Of a stretch of 64,000 nucleotides of DNA, positions 2,275 through 57,930 are shown one piece after another; within the stretch, counting starts at the first letter, position 1; every line of letters starts with the position of its first letter. Made by a program: the position numbers and the translations under genes. Source of the DNA: Candidatus Paceibacter sp. (lineage in GTDB: Bacteria; Patescibacteriota; Minisyncoccia; UBA6257; 02-FULL-45-10c). The DNA is taken from contig DYGE01000001.1 of NCBI GenBank assembly GCA_020724845.1, forward strand, positions 58,218-122,217, written 5' to 3'. The notes beneath the pieces were generated by a model. It was not told where the DNA came from and did no database searches. It worked only from the letters and a program-made list of their open reading frames with translations.

Positions 2275-2338
2275 ATATTTTAGTTCTGATTCTACCCTTC
2301 TAATAATAACATAAAATCCTCCGCAATTGGAGGATTAT

Positions 2339-2887
2339 TTAATCTTCTCTGATAACTTCCAGGCTTACTACAGGCTTGAACTCGGTAAAGTAATCCCTTT
2401 TCAAGAAAACAATCTCCACTTTATAAACCATCAGTTTTCCGCGAATCACTCTTTTCTGGTGGCGTATATCTTGCAGTTCATTTGGTCGCTTTATCCGCCA
2501 GTTGCTCTCATTCAGCCGTATCGCCGAAGCCAGGCGCGCCTTCCGGTCGTTGGTAGGCCACCATTCAAAATAAACTACCCCCTGGTCAAAAAAATCAATG
2601 GTAAATATGGATATTCCAAGCCCATCGTTTTCATATTCAGCGCCGGTGGCGATCTTCTTATCAAGCTCCGCGGTTCCAAAGGCGCAGCCGAAAAGCATTT
2701 GCTTCCCGGACTTCTTATCAACGTCAACGTACATATCCAGCTTGTTGGTTCTTATCCAGCCTTCCGTTTCGCATCTTTCTCTGCTGTCAAAATCAGGGAT
2801 TTTGAAATCTCTCCCCGGGACTAGCATCAGTCCTCGCAATGTGAAGGTTCTTATTTTTATAATGCTCCTTAAAAAAATCTCCGTCAA
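2339..2887 (-). CDS. Hypothetical protein
   Basis: 182-aa ORF in the same orientation as the flanking operon, starting (TTG) 3 nt after the upstream stop. The antisense 165-aa ORF on + has low-complexity composition. Confidence 0.45.
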   Translation of the reverse strand: MTEIFLRSIIKIRTFTLRGLMLVPGRDFKIPDFDSRERCETEGWIRTNKLDMYVDVDKKSGKQMLFGCAFGTAELDKKIATGAEYENDGLGISIFTIDFFDQGVVYFEWWPTNDRKARLASAIRLNESNWRIKRPNELQDIRHQKRVIRGKLMVYKVEIVFLKRDYFTEFKPVVSLEVIRED

Positions 2888-2889
2888 TG

Positions 2890-3351
2890 TTATTCAGCGG
2901 TTTTCTGGAACACTTTAAGCGCTTCAAGCTGCGCGTCTTGGAGGTGAGTGGCCGGCCGTTTTTCTTTTATTAGAGCGACGGCGCCTTCCACAGTTTTCCC
3001 CCGGCTGATTAAATACGCGGCAACCAACGTTGGCGCCCTGCCATGGCCGTGTTTACAATGCACGTACACTTTTTTATCCATCTTTATCAACTCTTCAATA
3101 AATCTAATGCCTAAACGCAATTGTTCCGGATTGGGTGGCGTGTGATCCTTAGTCGGCAGCCAAAGGTAAAATTTCACCCCAAACGGGGCATCCAGCTTTT
3201 CTTCTTCTAAAGATATGTCGGCGGTGATTCCTTGTTCCAGCAATTCTTCTTCAAAATGCGTCCGGCAGCACATATTGGTGCCAATGTAGATATTGGGAGT
3301 GATCTGGTTATATTCCAATTTGTTATGCTTTTTATCGTGATTGTTTTCCAT
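2890..3351 (-). CDS. Dual-specificity / protein-tyrosine phosphatase
   Basis: VHCKHGHGRAPT matches the CX5R P-loop signature. Confidence 0.8.
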   Translation of the reverse strand: MENNHDKKHNKLEYNQITPNIYIGTNMCCRTHFEEELLEQGITADISLEEEKLDAPFGVKFYLWLPTKDHTPPNPEQLRLGIRFIEELIKMDKKVYVHCKHGHGRAPTLVAAYLISRGKTVEGAVALIKEKRPATHLQDAQLEALKVFQKTAE

Positions 3352-3353
3352 AA

Positions 3354-4319
3354 CTATTTAATTAGTTTTTTAAACTCTTCTACCATTGGCACTTGCTCCG
3401 CCTCAACTCCGTATTCTTTGGCAGTATAATAAGCCGTCCAGTCCGCCAAAAGCAAGGAGGAAAAAATCTTATGGAAATGGTTTTTGCCATTTACGATTAC
3501 AACTTCGGACGGCAGACGCCTTTCGCGGTACAATCTTTCGGTGACGTTCATCCGTTTGGTTATCTTAGGCTGGTCGGCAACATCTTTTAGAAAAACGAAG
3601 TAAAAGTACTTGGAAAGCGCGCCAGTGGAATCTTTAACGTCAAAGCCGGTCATTTCGTTGTGGTTGAGTTCCGGGAAATAATTGATGAAAGCCGGTATCT
3701 TTCCGGTTTCATTGAATTTTATTTTCCAATTATAAGCTATTGGCATATTTCTTTCGGATGAATAAATTACCGGCACATGCCCTTTCAGTTTTCTGGCGAG
3801 GGCTTTGCCGATCCTTTCGGCTTCGTAAGATTTCATTAGTTTCGCCAGTTCGGTCAGCTCACTGCTGAATTTATTTTCTTTCATTACCGCCGCCAGTGAT
3901 TTTATTGAATATCCCAAGGCGGATCTCGGCTGGATTCCGGTAGCCGGCATTTGCACGTGCGGGACCTTGCTCTTCTTAGCGAGATCTAAGAGTTTCCCGC
4001 CGGTAGAAACAGCCGCTAAGGGATACTTCATTTTTGAGGCGAGCTTGAAGCCCTCAATAACTTCTTCGGTATTGCCCGAATACGAACTGGCGATAATTAA
4101 ACTTTGTTTTAAAACTGCGGGGCTAAGTTTCGGCAAGCCATAATTGCGGTGAGACATGACATCAAAATAGGGGTCGCGGATTTTGAATAGGTCCGCGGCC
4201 AGGTTGGAGCCGCCCATCCCAAGGACGATGAATTTCTTGAATTTTTTCAGCTTCCCGGCATTTTCAATAACCGGCTTGTATTCAAACTGTTTAGGAAAAT
4301 TTTTTATTGCTTCGTGCAT
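3354..4319 (-). CDS. Bifunctional phosphoglucose/phosphomannose isomerase (SIS-domain PGI/PMI family)
   Basis: GMGGSNLAADL SIS motif; the ~320-aa size fits archaeal-type bifunctional PGI/PMI. Confidence 0.75.
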   Translation of the reverse strand: MHEAIKNFPKQFEYKPVIENAGKLKKFKKFIVLGMGGSNLAADLFKIRDPYFDVMSHRNYGLPKLSPAVLKQSLIIASSYSGNTEEVIEGFKLASKMKYPLAAVSTGGKLLDLAKKSKVPHVQMPATGIQPRSALGYSIKSLAAVMKENKFSSELTELAKLMKSYEAERIGKALARKLKGHVPVIYSSERNMPIAYNWKIKFNETGKIPAFINYFPELNHNEMTGFDVKDSTGALSKYFYFVFLKDVADQPKITKRMNVTERLYRERRLPSEVVIVNGKNHFHKIFSSLLLADWTAYYTAKEYGVEAEQVPMVEEFKKLIK

Positions 4320-4323
4320 ATAA

Positions 4324-6678
4324 TTATTTTACCACATCGTGCCCGCCAAATTGATTGCGAAGCGCGGAAAGTATTTTGCCGACGTAACTCGGCGATTTCT
4401 CCGATTTTACTCGGAATCTGAAAGCGCCTTCAATGGCCGGAGTAGGAACTTTTAGTTTTTTCGCGGTTTTTACCGTCCATTCTCCTTCCCCGGTATGGCT
4501 CACTGAGCCGGATATCTTTTTCAAATTTTCCCCAAATTCTTCGTACGCGGATTTGATCCATCCTATTAGCCGTGACTCTATCACGCTTCCATGGTTGTAA
4601 ATCTCGGCGACTCTTTTAAGATCAAGCTTGAATGGCGATTTTTTCATCACGGCAAATCCTTCGGCAATTGCCTGCATCATTCCGTATTCAATTCCGTTAT
4701 GGACCATCTTCACAAAATGTCCGGCGCCGGATTTACCAATGTAGCCATACCCTCCTGGAGCGGCTAAGTCCTGGAATAGACCCTCCAAGGCGATAAATAT
4801 TTTTTTATCGCCGCCTATCATAAGCGAAGACCCGGCACGCGCTCCCTTTGGCCCGCCGGAAACTCCGACGTCCAGAAAATGGATGCCTCTTTTGTGAAAT
4901 TCTTTTGAACGCTTTATTGAGCTTTCGTAAAAGGAATTGCCTCCGTCAATTACTATATCTCCCTTGCTTAAAATTTTCAGTAAGCGCGCGGTTGTTTCTT
5001 CTATCGGTTTTCCGGCCGGTACCATTAACCACAACAACCTGGGCTGCCCCAGGTTCTTAGCCAATTCTTCTATCGCGTAAGCGCCGAGTAATCCTTCCCT
5101 TCCCAACTCTTTGGTTGCTTGCCCGTCCTTATTATACCCATGAACTTTCCATCCTTTTTCCATTAGCCTTCTCGCGAGGTTCCCTCCCATTTTCCCAAGG
5201 CCGATAATGCCGATCTCTTTTTTAATCGGCCTTGCCAAATGCGGCGCTTTTTCAACTGATTCTGATGATTTCCGGGCTTCGTCTGTGTTTGGCTGATAGC
5301 TTTTCAGCGGAACAAGATTTTTCTGCCAGGCATTTGTAATCGGATCAGTAAACCTCCACATCGCTTCAACTTCTTCGCTGCTTACGAAAAGCGTTTGGTC
5401 CCCGGCGATGCAATCCAGCAGTAATTTTTCATACTCTTCGGTGTATTGCGGCTTTCCGGATTTTTCGCGATAACTGAATTTAAAAATTCTCTCTTCAACT
5501 TCCATTTTTAGGCCGGGTTTTTTCGACCAAAAAGTCACAGTTATTTCTTCTTCCGGTTCCATTCGGATAAACAGCTTATTTTTTAGATGTTCCCCTGATG
5601 GGCAAAAGCATGGCGTAGGATGCTTGAAAGCGACCTCAATTTCTTTTCTTTGTTCTTTTAACTTCTTGCCGCTCTCTAAAATTATTGGCACTCCTTGCCA
5701 TTTAGGATCTTTCAAGAAAGCCTTAATTTTAAAGTAAGTTTCAGTGTCTGATTTTGGCCGGACGCCCTTTATGGTCTGGTAGCCGTCGTATTGAGCGCGG
5801 AAAGTGTTGCTTTTAACTTCTTTTAATTCTGGCAATTCCAGAGTCTTTAAAATTTTCGCCCGATTTTTTCTGATGGCGTCCGCTTCACCAAACTTTCCCG
5901 GATTTTCCATTGTGATCAGCGCGAGCATTTGCAGCAAATGATTCTGGCCGACATCGCGCAAAGCTCCGACCCCATCGTAAAAACTGCCTCGGTCTTCTAC
6001 CCCGATGTTTTCCAGTAATTTTATATGAACGCTTTCAATTAATTTGTTATCCCATCCCTTTTCCAAAAAATTATTCGCGAAACGAAAGGTCAAGATATTT
6101 TGAAGCATTTCCTTGGCAAGATAATGGTCTATGCGGTAAATTTGTATTTCTTGGAAGAGCTTGCTTAGCAGCCCATCAAGCTTTCTCGCGGTTTTCAAAT
6201 CTTTGCCGAATGGCTTTTCAACCAAAACCCTAGTCCATCCCTCTTCTTCGCTGCAGGGCCGGGTTAGCTTGGAGGCCGATAAATTTTTGAAAATAACCTC
6301 GTAAAATTGAGGAGGCACCGCGAGATAGAATAATTTATTGGCGCAAACTCCCCACTCGTCGTCAATTTTTTGCAATAATTCCGAGAGTGCCCGAAAATCT
6401 TTTAAACTTTGGAAACCTCCAGGCTGATAATCAAAAAGATCGCAAAAAGCCGAGCAGGTTTTTAAATCCCATCCTTTTTTAATCAAGTTGCTAAATACAT
6501 AGTCGTGGAACTCCTGCTTGGAATATTCCCTCCTGGAAAATCCGACTATTTTGAACTTTTTCGGCAGTTCTCCTTTTTGGAATAAATTAAAAAGCGCCGG
6601 CGTGATTTTTTTGGCCATTAAATCTCCAGTGGCTCCAAAAATAACAAAAATTGTTGGAATATTCGGATTTAGTTTCAT
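4324..6678 (-). CDS. Fused glucose-6-phosphate dehydrogenase / 6-phosphogluconate dehydrogenase (Gnd-like short form)
   Basis: N-terminal ~485 aa carry G6PD motifs (GATGDLAKKK, EKPFG, RIDHYLAKE). C-terminal ~285 aa carry the GLGKMGGNLARRL NAD(P)-binding motif and 6PGDH core, joined by a short linker in one uninterrupted 784-aa frame. Confidence 0.85.
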   Translation of the reverse strand: MKLNPNIPTIFVIFGATGDLMAKKITPALFNLFQKGELPKKFKIVGFSRREYSKQEFHDYVFSNLIKKGWDLKTCSAFCDLFDYQPGGFQSLKDFRALSELLQKIDDEWGVCANKLFYLAVPPQFYEVIFKNLSASKLTRPCSEEEGWTRVLVEKPFGKDLKTARKLDGLLSKLFQEIQIYRIDHYLAKEMLQNILTFRFANNFLEKGWDNKLIESVHIKLLENIGVEDRGSFYDGVGALRDVGQNHLLQMLALITMENPGKFGEADAIRKNRAKILKTLELPELKEVKSNTFRAQYDGYQTIKGVRPKSDTETYFKIKAFLKDPKWQGVPIILESGKKLKEQRKEIEVAFKHPTPCFCPSGEHLKNKLFIRMEPEEEITVTFWSKKPGLKMEVEERIFKFSYREKSGKPQYTEEYEKLLLDCIAGDQTLFVSSEEVEAMWRFTDPITNAWQKNLVPLKSYQPNTDEARKSSESVEKAPHLARPIKKEIGIIGLGKMGGNLARRLMEKGWKVHGYNKDGQATKELGREGLLGAYAIEELAKNLGQPRLLWLMVPAGKPIEETTARLLKILSKGDIVIDGGNSFYESSIKRSKEFHKRGIHFLDVGVSGGPKGARAGSSLMIGGDKKIFIALEGLFQDLAAPGGYGYIGKSGAGHFVKMVHNGIEYGMMQAIAEGFAVMKKSPFKLDLKRVAEIYNHGSVIESRLIGWIKSAYEEFGENLKKISGSVSHTGEGEWTVKTAKKLKVPTPAIEGAFRFRVKSEKSPSYVGKILSALRNQFGGHDVVK

Positions 6679-6710: not shown

Positions 6711-6920
6711 TTATAGCAATGAAGGCGCTTGCAACAAGTAGCCGAGAATAATGAGAGTGATGCCGGCTATGCCGATGTACCTTTCGCGCTTCATTTCGGT
6801 AAATACTTTTTCATCAACCTGATGTTCTTGCCAGAAGCGGTAATGAATCATAACGGCAGTGTAGGAAATCATAATTTTCCCTATAACGTCCAGCGTAAGC
6901 CCGATAAATTCTAAATTCAT
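6711..6920 (-). CDS. Small hypothetical membrane protein
   Basis: 69-aa ORF with two predicted TM helices; no clear Shine-Dalgarno. Confidence 0.3.
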   Translation of the reverse strand: MNLEFIGLTLDVIGKIMISYTAVMIHYRFWQEHQVDEKVFTEMKRERYIGIAGITLIILGYLLQAPSLL

Positions 6921-7837: not shown

Positions 7838-8356
7838 TTCTAAAATGCGTCTGCGAATCTCTTCTAAGTCCATCGGTCCGCGCTTGTGTTGTAGAATATT
7901 GCCAGCGGCATCCACAAAAATAGTTTCCGGCATTGAGAATCCGCCTATGGACCGATAAAAAGAGTCGTCCGGATCAAGAAGAAAAACTAAATCATTCGTT
8001 ACGTCCAATTCGTCAGTGTATTTTTTGGCGGTTTCCAGCGGTTCAGCGCGGTCGATGGCGATAATGATTACTTGATCGCCGAACTCTTTTTGCGCCGCGG
8101 CGAACGCGGGCAATTCTTCAACGCAAAAAGGGCACCAGGCGGCCCAAGAATTTATAACCAGCGGTTGGCCTTCAAAATCTGACAAGCGCACTATTTCCCC
8201 TTCATAATTTTGCAAGCTAAAAGCAGGCGCTTTATCAAGTCTGTCTTCTTCTGTAACAACGTTCGCGGCCTGCCTTTTAGCTACTCCTGAAGACAACAAA
8301 AAAACAACCGCGATAATTCCCAAAATTATGTATAATGATTTCTTCATATTACTCAA
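7820..8356 (-). CDS. TlpA/ResA-like thiol-disulfide oxidoreductase (thioredoxin fold, secreted)
   Basis: Signal/TM N-terminus and a WCPFC CxxC motif. Confidence 0.85.
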   Translation of the reverse strand: MSNMKKSLYIILGIIAVVFLLSSGVAKRQAANVVTEEDRLDKAPAFSLQNYEGEIVRLSDFEGQPLVINSWAAWCPFCVEELPAFAAAQKEFGDQVIIIAIDRAEPLETAKKYTDELDVTNDLVFLLDPDDSFYRSIGGFSMPETIFVDAAGNILQHKRGPMDLEEIRRRILELTTND

Positions 8357-8507
8357 AAAGACAATCTTATAATTCTCTTTTTGAGTAATGGCGAATTCTG
8401 AATTTCACGATTCGCCATTCTAGCTAGCGAGTTAGCACCCGCAAGGGGCTTTAGGGCCTTTCATAAATTTGTTGGTTATTAATTGGTAATGTGGATTTTC
8501 TTTGCAT

Positions 8508-8888
8508 TTATAATCCTATCGAGCCTCCTCCATTTAGAAGAATAGCAATGTTAGCTGCCAAGAGCGCTAGATCAAATTCCCAGCCGGTTTTATCGTGAGC
8601 CGCGAAGGCTACTCCCCATTTCATCGTCTTCATTCCGATCGCGCCAATCATCACTATTGCCAAAAGAAGGGCAGATAACTGCGCGTAAACCCCGAGTATC
8701 AATCCCGCGGAAGACAAAAGCTCTACTAGGCCGAGCATAAAGATCATTCCCGCTGGCATCGCCATCATCTGCGCCATACCGCCGGCGTTTTTTAACTTTG
8801 GCAGGGCGTGATAAGCGAAAATGACAGCCACAACTAGACGCAGAAGAAACAAACCTAAATCACTGTATTGCAGTAGTTGTTCAAACAT
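8508..8888 (-). CDS. DoxX family membrane protein
   Basis: Four-TM small protein of DoxX-like composition. Confidence 0.75.
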   Translation of the reverse strand: MFEQLLQYSDLGLFLLRLVVAVIFAYHALPKLKNAGGMAQMMAMPAGMIFMLGLVELLSSAGLILGVYAQLSALLLAIVMIGAIGMKTMKWGVAFAAHDKTGWEFDLALLAANIAILLNGGGSIGL

Positions 8889-8925
8889 TTGATTTTTTTA
8901 TTTTATTTTTCCGACCTTTTTAAAT

Positions 8926-9966
8926 CTATTTATATAATTCAGTATCGGGATGCGCCGAAGCCCAGCTGAACCAGAATCCGGAAACCGGATTGATTCTTTC
9001 TTCTGATCCGTCCGGAAGCCTTTTAAAAATCCTTACGACATCCAAATCTTTGTCGTGGCGTAAGATTATATTCTCCCCTTGAAATTCGTCCGTTACTTCC
9101 TCTTTTTCTTTAACCGCTTCAGTATGATACGCTTTTGCCTGTCCGTTGATTACGATTCCAAAAACAAACGCGTCGTTTGGCAATCTCGTGTCAGTAGGTT
9201 TGGCGAGCGAAAGCGCCAAATTAGTCGCCGAGAAATAATCTCCGTAGGGACTGTAGCCGTAAATCCTGGTAGCGCCAGTGTCACGAGAAAGCACCTCTCC
9301 ATTAGGAAATTGCTTTTTCCAATTTCCATATAATACCTGATCTGACGGCAGGACCGGCAATTTAGTTCCGGTCATTTCGCCCACTACGGCTTCTCCAAGG
9401 ACTTGCGGCCAAAGCGATTCGGTTTTACGGTCATACATCACTAAATTTGATTTCCAAAGCTTGCCGGAAGTTCCAAACTCTACGCGCTCTCCTTGTACGA
9501 TTGGGTCAAAGACGAAGCCGGTCAGGCAAAGCGGGCAGTATGTGACAAGTACTCGTCTTCCATCAATCTGGTCATTTACGATTTCATGCCATACCAAAAT
9601 TTGGTACGGGTAAAAGCGGTGCGCGCCAGCCAATGATAAGGCTACTCCCGGTTCGCTATCGTCAAGAAACTCATCCGCCTCTTGTATAGAAACGAACTTA
9701 GGATCATCAATCGGCGGAATGCCGTCTTTAGGCGGTCCGCCACTGATGATTTCTTCCAGCGGGATGCTGTGTTTTACGCCGCCAGTAACCATTATCTTTT
9801 TTTCTTCAATATTTCCGTTAGTTTCCACAATGATTGTTTTTTCGGTTGTTTCGCCACCGACCGGCAGTTCAATATCCGAAGCAAATCTCTGCCATAAAAG
9901 TAAACCGAGATATCCAACGGCTAAAACCAAAATTGTTGCATATACGATTTTTTTAGTCGCAAACAT
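8926..9966 (-). CDS. DUF3179-like secreted/anchored protein
   Basis: N-terminal anchor, then GGPPKDGIP and YCPLC motifs that I recall as DUF3179 features. Confidence 0.55.
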   Translation of the reverse strand: MFATKKIVYATILVLAVGYLGLLLWQRFASDIELPVGGETTEKTIIVETNGNIEEKKIMVTGGVKHSIPLEEIISGGPPKDGIPPIDDPKFVSIQEADEFLDDSEPGVALSLAGAHRFYPYQILVWHEIVNDQIDGRRVLVTYCPLCLTGFVFDPIVQGERVEFGTSGKLWKSNLVMYDRKTESLWPQVLGEAVVGEMTGTKLPVLPSDQVLYGNWKKQFPNGEVLSRDTGATRIYGYSPYGDYFSATNLALSLAKPTDTRLPNDAFVFGIVINGQAKAYHTEAVKEKEEVTDEFQGENIILRHDKDLDVVRIFKRLPDGSEERINPVSGFWFSWASAHPDTELYK

Positions 9967-10022
9967 GGACTAATATTTTAGATTAATGAATAATTAATCC
10001 CTTATTCTTAATTCCTGATTCT

Positions 10023-10286
10023 TTATTCTTTTGTTTTGATTGCCCATTCTTTTAATTCCTCGTAAGAGGCTTCTCCGCAAATATATTTTTCTGTATCGGT
10101 ATTAAAGAAAAATGGGACTCCTCCGCAGTATCCTTTATCGTATTCCCGCATCTTTTTGGCATTTTCTTCATTATGCCAAGTTTCGTATTGTTCAACCTTT
10201 ACCCCCTCTTCTTTTTCAAATTTTTCAACTAAGGGGCGCATTAGATTGCAATGGGGGCATTCTTCGCCATAGAACTCTAAAAGCAT
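10023..10286 (-). CDS. Thioredoxin-fold small protein (CPHC)
   Basis: 87 aa with a CPHC redox motif. Confidence 0.6.
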   Translation of the reverse strand: MLLEFYGEECPHCNLMRPLVEKFEKEEGVKVEQYETWHNEENAKKMREYDKGYCGGVPFFFNTDTEKYICGEASYEELKEWAIKTKE

Positions 10287-10289
10287 AAA

Positions 10290-10526
10290 TTATAGATTTA
10301 ATAAATCTGACAGTTTTTCTTTTTGGAAACCGACTACTAACTGGCCGTCAATGTCAATTACCGGCACCCCCATCTGCCCGGATTTTTGGATCATTTCGTT
10401 TCTCGCTCCCGCGTCTTCGGCTACATTTTTTTCCGAATAAGCGACATTGTGCTCCTTAAAAAATTCTTTAGTCATCTTGCAGTAGGCGCAAGTTGGCGTA
10501 GAATAAATTGTTACTTGGTTAGCCAT
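10290..10526 (-). CDS. Glutaredoxin (NrdH/GrxC-like)
   Basis: 78 aa; TCAYC CxxC motif and GVP sequence. Confidence 0.8.
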   Translation of the reverse strand: MANQVTIYSTPTCAYCKMTKEFFKEHNVAYSEKNVAEDAGARNEMIQKSGQMGVPVIDIDGQLVVGFQKEKLSDLLNL

Positions 10527-13732: not shown

Positions 13733-13818
13733 ACCCCACTCAACGCATGTATTATGTTGCAAGTCCATCTTCATTTTGCTATCTTACATTGAGAACTCGT
13801 AAACCAGAGACGAAGCAT

Positions 13819-14529
13819 ATGGTCAAGGCGGTGCTGTTTGATTTGGGGAATACTCTTATTGAATACCCGACACCGGAAGCGTTGAGGGAAAACTACAAAA
13901 GATTCGCCCGCGGCGAGGCGCGCCTTGATGAGGTGTTACTTGACCGGATGCACAAACTTTTGATGGAAGAGAGACGCGTCGGCTTCAAAACTTTTGAAGA
14001 GGCTACGATCGTTCGGGCGCTTTCGCGCGCGTTACGGGAGCGAGGAATGTATACCAACACAGTAGAATTGTATAGGCAAGTGGGGGAAATTTACCATTAC
14101 GGATTCAGTAAGTCCGCTACGCTGATTGATGGCGCTCAAGAGCTGTTGGAATGTCTTGACATACTTGGAATAAAGTATCGCCCTAGAATAAAGATGGGCA
14201 TTGTGTCTAACACGCCATTTCCCGGCTACCTCTTCCAAGAGGAAATGGAACGATTTGGTATTGCAAAGTACTTCCGTACTTTTGTCTGGAGTTCCGAATT
14301 CGGAAAGCGAAAGCCTAGCCCTGACATTTTTCTTAAAGCGCTATGTAATCTAGGAGTAGCTCCAAACGAGGCCGCTTTTGTCGGCGACAAGCTGGATCGC
14401 GATGTTGCCGGTTCCCGCGGAGTCGGAATGACTTCTATCTGGTTTGACCGGAAAGGAACCGGACATGATCACGACGGTTACCGCGTGACCTCGCTGAAAG
14501 AAATTCCCGAGCTTCCAGGATTATTCTAA
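13819..14529 (+). CDS. HAD-superfamily hydrolase
   Basis: FDLGNTL (motif I DxG) and GDKLDRDV (motif IV). Start placed at the internal Met that immediately precedes motif I. Confidence 0.8.
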   Translation: MVKAVLFDLGNTLIEYPTPEALRENYKRFARGEARLDEVLLDRMHKLLMEERRVGFKTFEEATIVRALSRALRERGMYTNTVELYRQVGEIYHYGFSKSATLIDGAQELLECLDILGIKYRPRIKMGIVSNTPFPGYLFQEEMERFGIAKYFRTFVWSSEFGKRKPSPDIFLKALCNLGVAPNEAAFVGDKLDRDVAGSRGVGMTSIWFDRKGTGHDHDGYRVTSLKEIPELPGLF

Positions 14530-31713: not shown

Positions 31714-32316
31714 TCATGGAGCGGCCTTAGATCGCGGAGTTACGGTAATCTTTCCTTTCATCCAAGGGTGCGGGCGGCAGTTATAAGGGTAAGCGCCCGT
31801 CTCAACAAATTGGATCGGCTTGGATTGCTTCCCTTTGGTAATGCCTCCGGTGTCAAAAAAATTCTTGGCGCCATCTTCCGCCGTTGCGGTATGGTACATC
31901 GCGGCGCTGCGGAAATCTTGATTGGTCCAGATTACTTTGTCGCAAGATTTAATTTTCAGATTTTTTGGTTCGTAGGCTTTATCTCTTAAATTCAGTTCCG
32001 GCGGAGACATGCCATACTTGGTGATTGTGACAGTATGCACGTTATAACTGACATCCTGACATTCCGGATTTTCGACTTTTGGCCGGCATTCGCCTCGGGA
32101 TTTGACTTCTACTTTAGCGACTGACGCCTTGCATTCGTTTGGATACGTCTTCCCATCCGCGCCGCAGACCGGAGCGTAATGTTCGGTGCAGATAGTTTTT
32201 CCATCGGGCGGTTTCGTTTCCGGCTGGCTGTTTTTAGCGCAACCGCTTAAAAGCCAGAGTAGGAGGAGCAAGATCGCGGCCATAATGAACGGCTTGGCGA
32301 TGATTAGCTTGTTCAT
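31714..32316 (-). CDS. Lipoprotein with Kazal-type inhibitor domain and cupredoxin-like (type-1 copper) domain
   Basis: Lipobox LLSGC. Kazal motif CTEHYAPVCGADGKTYPNECKA. C-terminal YPYNCRPHPWMKGKITV with Cys-His-Met ligands. Start at internal ATG. Confidence 0.6.
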   Translation of the reverse strand: MNKLIIAKPFIMAAILLLLLWLLSGCAKNSQPETKPPDGKTICTEHYAPVCGADGKTYPNECKASVAKVEVKSRGECRPKVENPECQDVSYNVHTVTITKYGMSPPELNLRDKAYEPKNLKIKSCDKVIWTNQDFRSAAMYHTATAEDGAKNFFDTGGITKGKQSKPIQFVETGAYPYNCRPHPWMKGKITVTPRSKAAP

Positions 32317-32380
32317 GTTATCCGCTGATTTCAAAGTTCAGATAAGTTCATCTTGGAAAATTTGGAACAGAAAGTCAAAT

Positions 32381-37360: not shown

Positions 37361-38623
37361 TTATTCCGCGATGACTTCGATATTCGCTTTTAAGACGCCG
37401 GATGCCGGCCAATAAGAAGAAATAGTGAATGACTCATCGGCAACGAATTCTACCGTAGTTGAGCCGCCTGGTTTAACCGGATCCGTCTGAAATTTAGAAC
37501 TGCGAAAATCCAACCCCCCGAAATAAACATTAGCTTGCCTAACAACAAAAGTGAGCATAACTTTGGCGCCTTTTGGCACCTCTATGTTACCGGCCGGGTA
37601 AAAACCGCTATCATCCGCCTCTAACGTTAATTCTCGCGCGACTCCCTGCATTTCCGGAGTTCTTGATTCTGCCGGAGCTGGCGTTGTTGCGGCTTCCCGC
37701 TCCTTTTCTGGAATCGGGCATTCTCCTTTTGATTGAATTTCCACGCCGGCTACGCCAGCAGTACAGGAATTTGAATAGGTCTTACCGTCTTTGCCGCAAA
37801 CCGGCTCGTAGACCTGGATGCAAAGCACCTGATCTTCCTCCGGAGCCGGTTCCGGCATTTTTTCCGTTTCAGGAACAATAACAGGCGGGGCAGTCCTAGT
37901 TTCCGGAAATGCCGGCGCTTGGGCAGGCGCTATTTCCGTCTTGAGTTTTTCTATAACTTCGCTGACTCTGGAGGCAGCTTCTTCCGGCAGTTGTTCCACT
38001 AATGACTCAAGAACCTCTATGGATTGCAGTTCCGTTGCCGCTTTTACCGCTGTATCGGAAAATATAGCCGGATCGCTTTTTCTGGAAACATCTGCCAGCA
38101 TTTCTCCGAAACGGTTTTTGGAAAGTTTAATGGAATCTTGCAGTGGCTCATTCTCCACGAACTTGTCTTCCAGCTCTGCAAATAACCTGGCATGTCTTAG
38201 CGTTCTGTCAGTTATATTCTCCAGCAAAATGCTGACATTGGGATTTTCCGAGTGATCAGGCAGTGAAGCAATCCTATCTTTTAGGCGTTCTTGCGATGCT
38301 TGGTAGTTGGTTATAGCTTCATTAATCGCCTCGTAATTTTCTGGGAAGGTTTCAGCCACGGCATCAAGTTCAGCCGCCTTTTCATTATTAAAATTGGATT
38401 CCAATTCCGCTTTTTTAACTCTGTCAAAAGTCAGTAACAGCCGGAGGCTCCTCCTCCATTCTTTTAAGAAATAGAATGGGTTAGTTGGCAGAAGGCCGGG
38501 CTCTTCAATGCCCAAATTTACTGTTGCCGCCTGAATAGGCAGATTTTCTTCTTCATGAGCCAAGGCGGGATTTGTAGTTGATAGAACTGCTAGAGTTAAA
38601 AAAATAATGGAAAATTTGTTCAT
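37361..38623 (-). CDS. Secreted DUF5667-like helical protein with Kazal domain and C-terminal beta domain
   Basis: Signal peptide; NPFYFLKEWRRSL resembles the DUF5667 motif. Kazal motif CIQVYEPVCGKDGKTYSNSC. Pro/Thr/Ala linker. Confidence 0.6.
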   Translation of the reverse strand: MNKFSIIFLTLAVLSTTNPALAHEEENLPIQAATVNLGIEEPGLLPTNPFYFLKEWRRSLRLLLTFDRVKKAELESNFNNEKAAELDAVAETFPENYEAINEAITNYQASQERLKDRIASLPDHSENPNVSILLENITDRTLRHARLFAELEDKFVENEPLQDSIKLSKNRFGEMLADVSRKSDPAIFSDTAVKAATELQSIEVLESLVEQLPEEAASRVSEVIEKLKTEIAPAQAPAFPETRTAPPVIVPETEKMPEPAPEEDQVLCIQVYEPVCGKDGKTYSNSCTAGVAGVEIQSKGECPIPEKEREAATTPAPAESRTPEMQGVARELTLEADDSGFYPAGNIEVPKGAKVMLTFVVRQANVYFGGLDFRSSKFQTDPVKPGGSTTVEFVADESFTISSYWPASGVLKANIEVIAE

Positions 38624-42508: not shown

Positions 42509-43279
42509 TTATCTCGGCGCCCACATTAAGATATCTAATGACGATTCAGGGATAGCGCCGTATTGATTTATAACAGATCGAATCGCTTTTAACCGCGCGA
42601 AAACCTGGTTAACCGCTCCTCTTTCTAAAAGCTCCGTGAGTAATTCGTCTAACAGGTCTCGCATCTTCTGATCCAGCGCTAACCCGTTTATCTTCTCTTT
42701 CAGATCTTCTGGGACAGGTAGGTCAAGCACGCCTTTATATTCAAATTCCCTTGGAACATAGTCCCAGACAAAACTATGCCCGTGATCAATCGCGTAAATT
42801 TGGTTGCCTTTAAGCAGGTAGTTATTAAAACCCCGATCCGTATTGCCGATTATGTAGTCAAATATGCAAAGCTTCAGTATTTCTTCTTTCGGTATATTTT
42901 CGCGACCTTTGCGGCCAAGCTGCATAGGCAGCAAAGAGTTTTCAACAAATTGCTGTAAGCTTCCAAGCTTTCCGGATATTGACCTTATAATAGTCGGCGG
43001 CACGAAATTGAAACCAAGAAAGCGATCTACCAGATAAGCCGCCCGCTCGTTGCCAATGAATTTAATCCTGTCTCCGTAGTCCTGGTGAGTGTGCGGCTTA
43101 AATACCCCTAGGCCATCGTTCTTCAATTTCACTAATTCCGCGTCGCCGGTAAATCCGCCAAGCAATTCAACGGTTCTTTCTACTTCTCTGCTTTGCAAAA
43201 TTTCTTCCTCCGGAGACGCGAATTGAGTCGGGGTTTCCCGATGATATGACTCTTTTTTTGAAGCAGTTTCAAATGCCAT
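42509..43279 (-). CDS. PI3K/PI4K-like kinase-fold protein
   Basis: Catalytic-loop-like IGNTDRGFNNYLL and activation-loop-like AIDHGHSF (compare PI3K GDRHxxN / IDFGH); upstream Lys region VFKPHT. Confidence 0.55.
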   Translation of the reverse strand: MAFETASKKESYHRETPTQFASPEEEILQSREVERTVELLGGFTGDAELVKLKNDGLGVFKPHTHQDYGDRIKFIGNERAAYLVDRFLGFNFVPPTIIRSISGKLGSLQQFVENSLLPMQLGRKGRENIPKEEILKLCIFDYIIGNTDRGFNNYLLKGNQIYAIDHGHSFVWDYVPREFEYKGVLDLPVPEDLKEKINGLALDQKMRDLLDELLTELLERGAVNQVFARLKAIRSVINQYGAIPESSLDILMWAPR

Positions 43280-54861: not shown

Positions 54862-57800
54862 TTACCTGGCTAACGGGCTTAATAGGCGAATTATATCTTC
54901 GCGCCTTTGGGAAAGCGCCTTCTTCAAATAAGGCGCTTCCCCGCCTGACTTTATCGCCGCTGAATAAGTTTCAACAGCATCTAGAAGCTTTGCTCTATCT
55001 CGGTAACTAGCTTCTCCGATTGATAATATGGCTCTCAATTCGGAAATCCTTTCTGTCAAATCGCGTGTTGAATCTTCACCGTCCTTGAAGCCGGCAGATG
55101 TAATAATCTCATCAATAAAAGCGTCATCAATATCTTCCAATTTTTTAAGCATTTTTTGGAGAAGAATCTGGTTTTTAACTATTACCCTCCCCTCTCTAAC
55201 TTCCAAAAGATTATGATAGGCCTCATTGACCGGCTTCCCGGCGAATTGAGGGTTAGCCAAAACCTCTTGCAGTTGAGAAATTCCAAAATGCTCCGGGAAA
55301 CCCTTATATCCGCCCCTTGCTCTGGAAAATAAACTAGCTCCATTATCAATAAAAGCAACTTTGTCTCCTTTAAACATCAAATTCCAAGCCGTTCGGTCAT
55401 ATTGGCCAAGTAGGGCGTCTACCAAAAGGCCTTCCTGAATTTTTTGATTCTGGTGATGTTCTTCCGGCAATGTCAGGCCGCCTTCCTTCCAGCCCTCCAA
55501 AAGCTCCATTTTTAATTTCGGCACCCTTTCAATGGCCACTAAGTCAGTTTTGGGAGTAAGAAGTCCGGCTCTTTCAAGAAATTTCTGCCCGACAAAATCA
55601 GCTTGTACGGTATGGCGCGGACCGCCTTTCAACAAGAATTTTTTGCCTTTCTTATCTTCCCAAAGCTGAAGACGATGAGTGCCAATATAATTACCCCGGA
55701 ATTCCTGAATAAATTTCAATCCCTCAAGCGGATTTTGACTATTAATTCTTATCCGCTGTTCCGGGTCAAGTTTGGGGGAGAAATTTCGCATAACCGCGTG
55801 CTCTACCGTCCAGGCAAGCAGTTGTTGATCTATAGATTTTGGTTTACTTTCCGGTTTTAATTTGCCTTTTTCGTCTAGAATAAAAAGTGCGGGCTTATAG
55901 ATACTCTTTGGACGACCCTCTAAGAAATCCAATTCTCTTGATGGCCCTGAATCTCTAAGCCGACGGGACAATTCTTTTCGGGTCGGATTGCTGGAAGAAA
56001 ATAACATGATTTTTTCATCAACCTCTTGCGAGGATATCCCAATGCCTCCAGTCTCTGCCAAAGATCTTATAGCGAACTCCGGTATTGAGCCAGCATATCC
56101 GGTATCAATAAAAGCAAATTCCAAACCGACTCCATTTTCCTTGAGATACCGGGCTACCTTACTTTGATTCTTTTGGGACGCCATAGATCTAGTCACTACT
56201 ACATATTTTAACTCTTTTCTTTTTAACCCGATTTCATTGGCTTTGATGGCTGTAAAGAAATACCGGCCATCGCGTCCAAAAACCGCCAACTTTTCTGCTC
56301 CGAAATCTTCCAACTTTTCTTTGGCTTCCCAATAAAGCGGCACGTCCTTCTCCTCCACACTTTTATACATTTGCAAATTCTCCTGGTAATGACCAATAAT
56401 TTCTTGTAATTTTTCAAAATACGAATCAGGATACGATTTATCATCACGATTAGCCAGATCTTGGGCAAGGTAATAGCGGATTTTTTCCGCTAAAAGAGTG
56501 CGGAAATCCGGGATCTGCCTACTTCTTTTAAGGGTTGGATGATAAAGCAAAAAAGGATTAGCGCTTTCTGGCATATCTAGAGGCGTTTCCCACCGTACTC
56601 TTTCAATGAAATCTACAAGCTTATCTAGATTTAAGGCGAGATGGGCGATTGATTGCCCGTCTGGAGTCTCTGAATCTACTGACCTACCTAGGAAATACTG
56701 CAGAGCCCTAATTTCACTTATGGCGTTTTCCGGGCGATTTTCCAGAGACGCCAGCGACAACGCTCTCGCGTATGATAGAGCAGCCATGCCGTACGCTTCT
56801 TCATAATTCACCTCTTCCGGAAGATTAGATTCTAAATCCTTCTCCTCCATTACCCCGAAAAGAAAATTTAAATAACTGTCAACATTTTCAAATCCGGCGT
56901 TACGCCTAGAGATAATTCCAAAAAGACCGGCTAAATAATTTTCCGGGGTCAATACTACCCCTTTTTCAAGCTTCGGAGTAAAGCGTCCATAGAAATTTAT
57001 TAACTTCCCAGCTTCCCAGGCGCTTGACGACGGTTGGGGTATAGGAGGTAAAATGGGACCTTCGTCAAAATCGTCATAGTCACCGTCATAGTTAAAGCCA
57101 TAGCCATCGTCATAGACATCATCTTCGCCCATGTCTTCAGCAGGCATATTTTCTACTTCTTTTCTCAACTCCTCCAACCTATTTTTTTCAACGGATTCCT
57201 CAAATTCCTCAAATTCTGGTTTTTCTTCGCTTAAAGTTTCGTTCCAGGAAGATATCGTTTTTGACAGTATTGCAAGCCATCCAGAAAATTCCGGATTATT
57301 TTCAGCCGTCTCCACTAAAACTTTTTTTGCTTCTTCTGTCCCTAATATGCCCGCAAGCGCGGAGGCTGCCACGCGTAAATCGCTATCTAGGTGCATCTTA
57401 CGCGCGTAGTCTTCGGTAACCGCATTATTAATAAACTGGACTATAGCCGGAGCCAAGCTCGGATCTTTTGATCTTCTTAATAATTCTAAAATTTGATGTA
57501 GATTGCTGCCATCAACGTTATCCAAAATAGCTGGTTTTTCTAGAATAGTTGCCGCAAATTTTGCTGAATCTTTGTAGCCGAGGCTAAGGTAGAGGTTAAT
57601 ATACCAATAAATCCCCTCGCCCCTTGATGATGCTGCTGAGTTAATTTTCTTCTCAAAAAACTGCTTAAACGCTGGCCCTGCCTTTTTCATATCAAACCAA
57701 TACTCTCGCTCGACCAAATAAAGGTTCTTACCGCCTTGCGCTCTAGAAAATTTATTTAAAAAAGCTCTATAACTTGTGTAATCTTCCCAAGCAAATCCAG

Positions 57801-57930
57801 TTCCGGAAGAGGAGAGTAGAATCTCAATCCTTCCCTGTAGCAAATCCTCAAACTTCTGCTTTTCTTCCGGAGAAAGCCCCAGTTCAGATTCCCGCTTAGG
57901 CGCTTTATCAAATTTTTCCCTGACCTCCAT
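54862..57930 (-). CDS. Large multidomain protein: N-terminal HEAT-like repeats, acidic linker, C-terminal PI3K/PI4K-like kinase-fold domain
   Basis: 1022 aa. C-terminus LLGQYDRTAWNLMF and AFIDNGASLF align with the 256-aa protein at 42509..43279 and resemble the PI3K catalytic DRHxxN and DFG loops. N-terminal helical repeats are HEAT-like. Confidence 0.6.
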   Translation of the reverse strand: MEVREKFDKAPKRESELGLSPEEKQKFEDLLQGRIEILLSSSGTGFAWEDYTSYRAFLNKFSRAQGGKNLYLVEREYWFDMKKAGPAFKQFFEKKINSAASSRGEGIYWYINLYLSLGYKDSAKFAATILEKPAILDNVDGSNLHQILELLRRSKDPSLAPAIVQFINNAVTEDYARKMHLDSDLRVAASALAGILGTEEAKKVLVETAENNPEFSGWLAILSKTISSWNETLSEEKPEFEEFEESVEKNRLEELRKEVENMPAEDMGEDDVYDDGYGFNYDGDYDDFDEGPILPPIPQPSSSAWEAGKLINFYGRFTPKLEKGVVLTPENYLAGLFGIISRRNAGFENVDSYLNFLFGVMEEKDLESNLPEEVNYEEAYGMAALSYARALSLASLENRPENAISEIRALQYFLGRSVDSETPDGQSIAHLALNLDKLVDFIERVRWETPLDMPESANPFLLYHPTLKRSRQIPDFRTLLAEKIRYYLAQDLANRDDKSYPDSYFEKLQEIIGHYQENLQMYKSVEEKDVPLYWEAKEKLEDFGAEKLAVFGRDGRYFFTAIKANEIGLKRKELKYVVVTRSMASQKNQSKVARYLKENGVGLEFAFIDTGYAGSIPEFAIRSLAETGGIGISSQEVDEKIMLFSSSNPTRKELSRRLRDSGPSRELDFLEGRPKSIYKPALFILDEKGKLKPESKPKSIDQQLLAWTVEHAVMRNFSPKLDPEQRIRINSQNPLEGLKFIQEFRGNYIGTHRLQLWEDKKGKKFLLKGGPRHTVQADFVGQKFLERAGLLTPKTDLVAIERVPKLKMELLEGWKEGGLTLPEEHHQNQKIQEGLLVDALLGQYDRTAWNLMFKGDKVAFIDNGASLFSRARGGYKGFPEHFGISQLQEVLANPQFAGKPVNEAYHNLLEVREGRVIVKNQILLQKMLKKLEDIDDAFIDEIITSAGFKDGEDSTRDLTERISELRAILSIGEASYRDRAKLLDAVETYSAAIKSGGEAPYLKKALSQRREDIIRLLSPLAR

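Follow-up and report, generated by a model that had tools for sequence, protein, structure and literature searches.

The open reading frame found at positions 4324-6678 of the analysed window (the whole 64-kb stretch of DNA) encodes a single polypeptide chain in which a glucose-6-phosphate dehydrogenase (G6PD, Zwf) is followed by a short-form 6-phosphogluconate dehydrogenase (6PGDH, Gnd-like). Such a G6PD-6PGDH fusion is already known, and the window protein is a real member; with a probability of about 85%, it is part of a family of such fusions which is widespread in the CPR/Patescibacteria and also present in DPANN archaea and some Actinomycetota. The sequence-only reading had allowed that the fusion might prove to be an already widespread family, and this is what the closest relatives and the fused loci show. 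The best 120 matches in a collection of 5.8 billion proteins, which stem from many independent assemblies, all display the same four-domain fusion (56-85% identity, 757-848 aa). Fused genes were localized at 16 loci: the window, one archaeal locus and 14 of the 80 loci of a genome scan, 13 of these 14 being complete and the remaining one truncated by the end of its contig. The context of the archaeal locus is genuinely archaeal, with neighbours such as Fibrillarin, Nop and TFIIE, and the fusion also occurs on Actinomycetota contigs of 64-68% GC. Among 50%-identity representatives, searched exhaustively, about 30 sequences span the junction covered by a 141-aa query and about 11 are full length, to be taken as a rough lower bound; a word-indexed search with the 141-aa junction query gave 43 candidates and 2 matches, and yields no family count. 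That CPR, DPANN and Actinomycetota all carry this fusion shows inter-domain transfer. The labels given to fused proteins in the sources mostly read just "glucose-6-phosphate dehydrogenase"; genomes so labelled therefore look devoid of gnd, and the mislabelled fusions distort metabolic reconstructions in both the CPR and DPANN.

Architecture of the fused gene and of its two modules

The gene and the modules of its product comprise the following features, all of them on the minus strand:

4324..6678, minus: zwf-gnd fusion ORF, 784 codons plus the stop codon (4324-4326), from the ORF listing, Pfam and NCBIfam
5248..6678, minus: G6PD (Zwf) module, aa 1-477 (TIGR00871, Pfam G6PD_N and G6PD_C)
6619-6636, minus: GATGDL, aa 15-20, dinucleotide fingerprint GxxGDL
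aa 154-158, minus: EKPFG
6109-6135, minus: RIDHYLAKE, aa 182-190
5938-5940, minus: catalytic His247 in GQNHLLQ
GK338, minus: in the G6PD module
5218..5283, minus: inter-module region, aa 466-487, delimited by conservation and overlapping the G6PD module by aa 466-477
5218-5247, minus: 10-residue linker between the Pfam envelopes, aa 478-487
4327..5217, minus: short-form 6PGDH (Gnd-like) module, aa 488-784 (NF007161, TIGR00872)
aa 493-505, minus: GLGKMGGNLARRL
aa 493-500, minus: GLGKMGGN
5125-5133, minus: cofactor-discriminating N516-K517-D518
aa 605-609, minus: GVSGG
4681-4710, minus: catalytic K657 and E664 in KMVHNGIEYG
R774..FGGH780, minus: C-terminal motif of the 6PGDH module

The uninterrupted 784-codon frame, as previously proposed, was found exactly on the minus strand, starting with an ATG which is the first start codon past the upstream stop. 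The gene call deposited for the same organism begins at Met21, which cuts off the NADP-binding GxxGDL motif. The domains follow one another along the chain in the order G6PD_N, G6PD_C, NAD_binding_2 and 6PGD, and the matches to Pfam and NCBIfam models over both halves agree with the earlier description of a complete G6PD and a complete short-form 6PGDH connected by a short linker. The unassigned segments of the 784-aa protein are all at most about 10-20 residues long. Its AlphaFold model displays a mean pLDDT of 88.5, with no segment below 50 (confidence per residue), and a pTM of 0.69.

The N-terminal module matches TIGR00871 (zwf) over aa 9-477 with 472.8 bits, the cut-off being 400.6, for a model of 486 positions, together with Pfam G6PD_N (aa 12-194, 1.9e-56) and G6PD_C (aa 196-477, 1.5e-85). 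Its best solved relative is 9emm (5e-88), and the alignment to 9emm and 7e6h agrees with the assignment of the G6PD motifs. Among the motifs quoted beforehand, EKPFG, RIDHYLAKE and GLGKMGGNLARRL occur verbatim, but the fingerprint given as GATGDLAKKK really reads GATGDLMAKKI (aa 15-25). The Ala which takes the place of Gly in RIDHYLAKE (RIDHYLGKE) is shared by 115 of the 120 fused homologues. With respect to the cofactor, Arg49 (GFSRR) corresponds in position to the Arg that binds the 2'-phosphate in known G6PD structures, which suggests the use of NADP+.

The C-terminal module exceeds the cut-offs of both short-form models within aa 488-782, NF007161 (367.1 bits versus 271, model positions 2-298 of 302) and TIGR00872 gnd_rel (349.2 bits versus 297.2), whereas the long-form models TIGR00873 and NF006765 score below their own cut-offs. 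It comprises the Pfam domains NAD_binding_2 (aa 488-640, 1.5e-41) and 6PGD (aa 653-762, 3.8e-20), and its nearest solved structures are short 6PGDHs, e.g., 8ihe (7e-61), 6xeq and 4e21. The N-K-D motif is atypical and resembles the NADP-type N-R-T/S, a likeness that suggests NADP+ or dual specificity. In this motif, 92 of the 120 relatives exhibit Asn, 74 Arg, 24 Lys and 26 Asp, and those with the Asp (NAD) type include the 85%-identical relative P0002.

Predicted reactions, the lactone step and the gene neighbourhood

As far as can be read from the motifs of both modules, the N-terminal module would convert glucose-6-phosphate into 6-phosphoglucono-delta-lactone with the reduction of NADP+, as predicted from Arg49 in GFSRR. 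The lactone would then be hydrolysed off the enzyme, spontaneously or with the help of an enzyme whose gene lies elsewhere, and the C-terminal short-form 6PGDH module would convert 6-phosphogluconate into ribulose-5-phosphate by oxidative decarboxylation. The activity of the fusion enzyme, its cofactor preference and its selective advantage are thus presented here as predictions; no enzymology of any member of the family was found in the literature searched. The probable benefit is that, in a minimal genome, both NADPH-producing steps are co-expressed at a fixed 1:1 ratio and co-localised, and the fusion may be viewed as a predicted compact two-step NADPH generator. As the reactions of the two modules do not directly follow each other in the pathway, strict substrate channelling is unlikely.

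The enzyme of the intermediate step, 6-phosphogluconolactonase, had been reported as missing from the vicinity of the gene, and none is recognisable in the 64-kb window by Pfam or by a local HMM. No lactonase was detected in the Pfam scan of the 20 ORFs in the window that measure 200-350 aa, which is also the only set in which β-propeller (YbhE-type) lactonases were checked, nor in the five ORFs without a match and the 182-aa ORF at 2339..2887 rescanned with Pfam at E 0.1, nor with a local HMM, made from 5 CPR lactonases and applied to all window ORFs of at least 70 aa. This HMM likewise detected no lactonase among the ORFs of at least 70 aa at the fused loci (L001-L084 set). A pgl gene is adjacent at none of the 16 fused loci versus 6 of the 13 split CPR-type loci (Fisher p = 0.004, or 0.015 with both-flank loci only), a contrast which is phylogenetically confounded and represents a modest lead.

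It is conceivable, in this respect, that the fusion offsets a missing 6-phosphogluconolactonase, the tethered 6PGDH dealing with the lactone before isomerisation or damage to proteins can set in, or that a non-orthologous hydrolase acts instead. Apart from the distribution of pgl, with no Glucosamine_iso-type lactonase in the window or in the flanks of the 16 fused loci, this explanation draws on a PF04199 metal-hydrolase gene which occupies the pgl slot at several loci, including the fused loci L020 (at 1357-1971) and L008. It is quite improbable, however: the split loci linked to pgl mostly cluster together in the neighbour-joining (NJ) tree, hence the confounding, the search was confined to the locus flanks, neither module contains an extra domain or insertion able to supply a hydrolase, and placing two active sites close together does not alone accelerate hydrolysis. 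The broader proposal that the fused clade is devoid of a canonical 6-phosphogluconolactonase, either because tethering makes one unnecessary or because an unrecognised hydrolase fills the step, seems unlikely as well; the PF04199 "cyclase" family, or the HAD/DSP hydrolases recurring beside fused genes, may provide candidate lactone hydrolases.

The fused gene opens a tight same-strand cluster, the other genes of which are listed here together with a nearby hairpin:

3354..4319, minus: bifunctional phosphoglucose/phosphomannose isomerase (PGI/PMI), Pfam bact-PGI_C 2.6e-37
2890..3351, minus: dual-specificity (PTP-fold) phosphatase (DSP), Pfam DSPc 2.6e-15 and related PTP families
2339..2887, minus: ORF without assigned family, 182 aa from a TTG (162 aa in the JGI call), from the ORF listing
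2315..2336, no strand assigned: hairpin with a following T-run on both strands, from a consensus scan only

The grouping of the fusion with a PGI/PMI and a phosphatase agrees with the earlier description, since the three genes share the same strand and are separated by gaps of 4 nt (fusion to PGI/PMI) and 2 nt (PGI/PMI to phosphatase). The gene at 3354..4319 matches the NCBIfam PGI/PMI models with 1e-64 to 1e-57, yet stays below their cut-offs, and its product would be a source of glucose-6-phosphate from fructose-6-phosphate. The last gene of the cluster (2339..2887) has no Pfam match even at E 0.1 and no homologue in the related loci. The hairpin could represent a terminator-like structure at the end of the four-gene cluster, and both the promoter and the terminator scans gave background levels. 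A PGI/PMI neighbour follows gnd at two other loci (L028 and L042), and a DSP homologue occurs at L009 only, 3 kb downstream of the fusion; these neighbours being only sporadically conserved, the "operon" is therefore not a trait of the family. The 10 kb past the left edge of the window contain ribosomal and EF-G genes and no PPP genes.

Linker, catalytic residues and origin of the fusion

The inter-module region consists of the variable C-terminal tail of G6PD and of the 10-residue linker. The junction had been placed around 5180-5230, a range that is somewhat displaced and takes in the beginning of the 6PGDH Rossmann fold; the real linker is located at nt 5218-5247. Along aa 466-485, the commonest residue occurs in only about 15-55% of the sequences, compared with over 90% in the motifs on either side, and the distance from Y461 to G493 in the 120 fused homologues is most often 31-32 residues and varies from 22 to 56.

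That the chain might be made whole and subsequently cleaved into two free enzymes, as suggested for some diatom fusions, is very unlikely: Kroth et al. mention evidence of cleaved diatom fusion proteins in some cases (PMC2173943), and the linker sequence is indeed variable, but it is also short, without any conserved cleavage motif, and it is modelled, short helices included, at a pLDDT which falls to 75-86 and not below 50. Just as unlikely is the idea that one half is catalytically dead or repurposed, for example as a regulatory NADP(H) sensor or as a β-hydroxyacid dehydrogenase acting on another substrate. The broad β-hydroxyacid dehydrogenase superfamily does include the 6PGDH fold, and weak matches to the HIBADH and tartronate semialdehyde reductase models occur; these models, however, remain far below their cut-offs whereas the gnd-specific models exceed theirs. 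In addition, residues K657, H660, N661, E664, S607, R756, R774 and H780 of the 6PGDH half, the catalytic and substrate-binding ones among them, are invariant in the 120 fused homologues and in a 101-sequence alignment, and the motif residues of the G6PD half, including D184, H185, K189 and H247, are invariant or near-invariant in the same homologues and the same alignment.

Finally, an assembly or sequencing artefact, in which a lost stop or a frameshift joined two adjacent genes, can be regarded as effectively refuted already, in spite of the related CPR genomes with split zwf>gnd neighbours, some of them one codon short of being fused, since an identical 784-aa protein occurs in an independent Logan assembly (P0121) and identical DNA of the fusion gene in a JGI contig (L081), the frame being the same in the JGI, NCBI and Logan assemblies, and since the best 120 relatives are all fused, 15 further fused loci (14 from the genome scan and one archaeal) belong to different species and the linker length is conserved.

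The fusion most likely originated from an adjacent zwf-gnd pair by the loss of a stop codon. Split zwf>gnd pairs occur at 24 related loci; these split genes are adjacent or overlapping, and at L002 both genes share the same frame with one TAG codon between them. The reversed order, gnd>zwf, occurs in Chloroflexota, Nitrospirota, Ignavibacteria and others. In NJ trees of both halves, distance-based and without support values, the fused and split CPR-type sequences form one clade, and the window protein groups with fusions from Wolfebacteria and Diapherotrites; these crude trees served for coarse grouping only. The family represents a clean case of fusion/fission between adjacent pathway genes.

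Relation to known enzymes and fusions

The solved short-form 6PGDHs (8ihe Gnd2, 6xeq, 4e21 and 6vpb) share the fold and the catalytic motifs of the C-terminal module (7e-61 to 1e-59) but stand alone, measure 332-358 aa and have insertions absent from the window module, and the closest of them exhibit Asp (NAD type) at the cofactor position where the window module possesses Asn-Lys. Orthologous G6PD and short-form Gnd also occur in CPR and other bacteria as split clusters, zwf-gnd(-pgl) or gnd-zwf(-pgl); there they are separate polypeptides, often with pgl as the next gene, in contrast to the one chain encoded in the window.

G6PD is also joined to another enzyme of the oxidative PPP in Plasmodium GluPho, in the G6PD::6PGL fusions of Giardia and Trichomonas and in metazoan H6PD, and such G6PD::6PGL fusions have multiple independent origins (PMC3148214). 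Their partner, however, is the lactonase (Glucosamine_iso fold) of the consecutive step, whereas that of the window protein is the dehydrogenase of step 3. H6PD (8em2) aligns with the window protein over the G6PD part only, and Pfam detects no PF01182 (Glucosamine_iso) lactonase domain in the 784-aa protein, which is thus not of the GluPho/H6PD type.

The assumption that only G6PD-lactonase fusions were known is contradicted by three papers (PMC11237513, PMC2173943 and PMC3148214), and the novelty claimed for the fusion has to be abandoned, the same fusion having appeared in a 2024 survey (PMC11237513) and a diatom G6PDH/6PGDH fusion in 2008 and 2011 (PMC2173943, PMC3148214). The latter, protein 54663 of Phaeodactylum tricornutum, resembles the window protein in uniting G6PD and 6PGDH in one reading frame with a short spacer (39 nt), but it is eukaryotic, reported as confined to that diatom and its close relatives, and its gene model is disputed. 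It presumably results from an event independent of the CPR fusion, the likeness being known from the architecture alone.

The closest counterpart is the G6pd-Pgd fusion reported from Diapherotrites and 60 candidate-phyla bacterial assemblies in a survey of archaeal fusions (mSystems 2024, cluster 1367; PMC11237513), which devotes one sentence to it and no biochemistry. Its single chain contains both enzymes in the order seen here, and more than 100 such fusions, including some named Diapherotrites and Micrarchaeota, share 56-85% identity with the window protein. No structural difference distinguishes this fusion of the CPR and Diapherotrites from the window protein, which is a member of the same family.

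The fused chain and its two halves

The 784-codon frame that the sequence-only reading had placed at 4324..6678 was recovered exactly in the ORF listing, on the minus strand and with an ATG that is the earliest start codon past the upstream stop. Four Pfam domains succeed each other along the chain:

aa 12-194, G6PD_N
aa 196-477, G6PD_C
aa 488-640, NAD_binding_2
aa 653-762, 6PGD helical domain

Among the NCBIfam models, TIGR00871 (zwf) matches aa 9-477 with 472.8 bits (cut-off 400.6), and aa 488-782 are matched by two models of short-form 6PGDH, NF007161 at 367 bits (cut-off 271) and TIGR00872 at 349 bits (cut-off 297), the scores against the long-form gnd models falling below their cut-offs. 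The two halves meet at aa 478-487 (nt 5218-5247), within the weakly conserved stretch aa 466-487 and a little upstream, in gene sense, of the 5180-5230 first proposed. The motifs quoted earlier are present, except that GATGDLMAKKI had been misread as GATGDLAKKK.

The fusion is not an artefact. A separate Logan assembly yields the same 784-aa protein, a JGI contig carries identical gene DNA, and all of the 120 best matches in a 5.8-billion-protein collection (56-85% identity) likewise combine these four domains in a single chain, 757-848 aa long. The deposited NCBI/JGI call (P0001, 764 aa) begins at Met21, dropping aa 1-20 (window 6619-6678) and with them strand beta-1 and the GATGDL (GxxGDL) NADP-binding fingerprint. 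The 784-aa form agrees with all homologues and with the Logan-derived call, and the homologue alignment shows this longer form to be right.

Across the 120 fused proteins, the invariant residues comprise G15, G18, E154-K155-P156, H185, Y186, K189, Q245-N246-H247 and G337-K338 in the G6PD half (D184 being near-invariant, 119/120), and N581, S607-G608-G609, K657, H660, N661, E664, R756, R774 and H780 in the 6PGDH half. The closest solved relatives are ordinary G6PDs for the former (9emm, 5e-88) and the short-form 6PGDHs 8ihe, 6xeq and 4e21 for the latter (about 1e-60). Confidence is high along the whole AlphaFold model, for which 101 homologues were used (mean pLDDT 88.5, pTM 0.69, linker 75-86). 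Both halves look active. Arg49 would be compatible with the use of NADP+ by the G6PD half. The 6PGDH half possesses N516-K517-D518 at a site where most family members exhibit the NADP-type N-R-T/S, and a NAD-type Asp occurs there in 26 of the 120 fused proteins, including the 85%-identical homologue P0002.

Occurrence and possible origin

With one genome scanned per GTDB species, at least 600 stretches matched. ORF and profile analysis served to classify the 80 best of them, together with an archaeal locus (L082) and the window.

Arrangement of zwf and gnd at the 82 loci
Fused, single ORF: 16 (14 scan loci, the archaeal locus, the window); Wolfe-, Magasanik-, Doudna-, Sacchari- and Paceibacteria; Coriobacteriia, Slackia and Actinomycetes contigs of 64-68% GC
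Split, zwf then gnd, adjacent: 24; other CPR lineages, Fictibacillus, Brevibacillus, mycobacteria
Split, gnd then zwf, adjacent: 35; Chloroflexota, Nitrospirota, Ignavibacteria, Betaproteobacteria
Partial or indeterminate: 7; contig ends or gnd-only matches

Copies of the same fusion at 49-51% identity occur on the Coriobacteriia, Actinomycetes and Slackia contigs of 64-68% GC (L012, L013, L014; match 8001-10330), extending its range past CPR and DPANN. The Diapherotrites fusion is truly archaeal, judging from its Fibrillarin, Nop and TFIIE neighbours. In neighbour-joining distance trees, which carry no support values, one clade per half holds the CPR-type fused and split sequences. The fusions from the archaeon and from actinobacteria branch inside this clade, suggesting that CPR were the source of a transfer. 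In a parcubacterial locus (L002:4861-5040), zwf and gnd share one frame, with one TAG and three more codons before the gnd ATG; one substitution would switch split to fused or back.

Neighbouring genes and the lactone step

Genes downstream of the fusion
PGI/PMI, 4 nt after the fusion
PTP-fold dual-specificity phosphatase, 2 nt after PGI/PMI
Unassigned ORF, 2 nt after the phosphatase gene
2315-2336, terminator-like hairpin past the unassigned ORF

This tight packing is consistent with the operon proposed earlier; its partners recur at few of the loci examined, PGI/PMI following gnd elsewhere in L028 and L042 only and a phosphatase homologue occurring in L009 only. Neighbours of other fused genes vary, e.g., transketolase (L008, L010) or HAD hydrolases (L003, L009, the archaeon). 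Small phosphatase-type hydrolases, HAD or, in the window, DSP, stand beside fused genes of unrelated lineages including the archaeon (L003:2455-3066; L082:11608-12324; L009:10391-11326; window 2890-3351 and 13747-14529); a sugar-phosphate phosphatase or beta-phosphoglucomutase-like role is possible. Directly upstream of the fusion, about 32 nt from its ATG, lies a JGI-called 69-aa gene devoid of Pfam matches (6711-6920, minus strand).

As previously noted, no recognisable lactonase lies near the fusion: Pfam scans of the window ORFs of 200-350 aa and a local profile scan of those of 70 aa or more found neither Glucosamine_iso nor another lactonase family in the window, nor was a lactonase found within 10 kb past its left edge. 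The lactonase gene pgl adjoins 6 of 13 split CPR-type pairs versus 0 of 16 fused genes (Fisher p = 0.004; 0.015 for loci flanked on both sides), a suggestive contrast that concerns flanks only and is phylogenetically confounded. Spontaneous hydrolysis of the delta-lactone also occurs. In several clusters, fused ones included, the pgl position is taken by a PF04199 'putative cyclase' metal-hydrolase gene:

L025, 10376-10996
L030, 10554-11180
L037, 1875-2501
L020, 1357-1971
L008, 12118-12792
L021, 5679-6314 and 11357-12043

The positions taken by this gene (metal-dependent hydrolase/esterase family) include one directly 3' of a fused zwf-gnd gene. The PF04199 protein is a candidate non-orthologous 6-phosphogluconolactonase; the literature search found no PF04199-6PGL link.

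Elsewhere in the window, two predicted proteins (31714-32334 and 37361-38623, minus strand) contain Kazal-type serine-protease-inhibitor domains, one together with a cupredoxin and the other with a DUF5667 domain. Kazal domains have been described mostly in eukaryotic proteins. A 256-aa ORF (42509-43279, minus strand) matches the catalytic domain of PI3/PI4-kinases (1.2e-08) and shows a weak match to HipA-like kinases, and a 1022-aa ORF (54862-57930, minus strand) has no Pfam match at E 0.001.

Probable mode of action and known counterparts

The Zwf-Gnd chain is complete and conserved. In the oxidative branch its modules would carry out steps 1 and 3, the lactone presumably being hydrolysed off-enzyme in between, and the fusion may serve mainly to keep the two activities close together and in a fixed ratio. 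Since steps 1 and 3 are not consecutive, true channelling is unlikely. The remaining interest resides in the enzymology of the fusion and in its lactone handling, the literature search having found no biochemical characterisation of the prokaryotic fusion.

The observation is confirmed and its interpretation partly supported. The fusion is already known and widespread, and its supposed novelty fails by the sequence-only reading's own yardstick, a widespread family. A 2024 survey of archaeal fusions (PMC11237513) had recorded G6pd-Pgd in Diapherotrites and in 60 bacterial assemblies of candidate phyla. The view that known fusions join G6PD to the lactonase only was mistaken, the G6PDH/6PGDH fusion of Phaeodactylum tricornutum having been described in 2008 (PMC2173943) and 2011 (PMC3148214). 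With respect to the cofactor site, the closest solved short forms exhibit a NAD-type Asp, where the window fusion displays N516-K517-D518.
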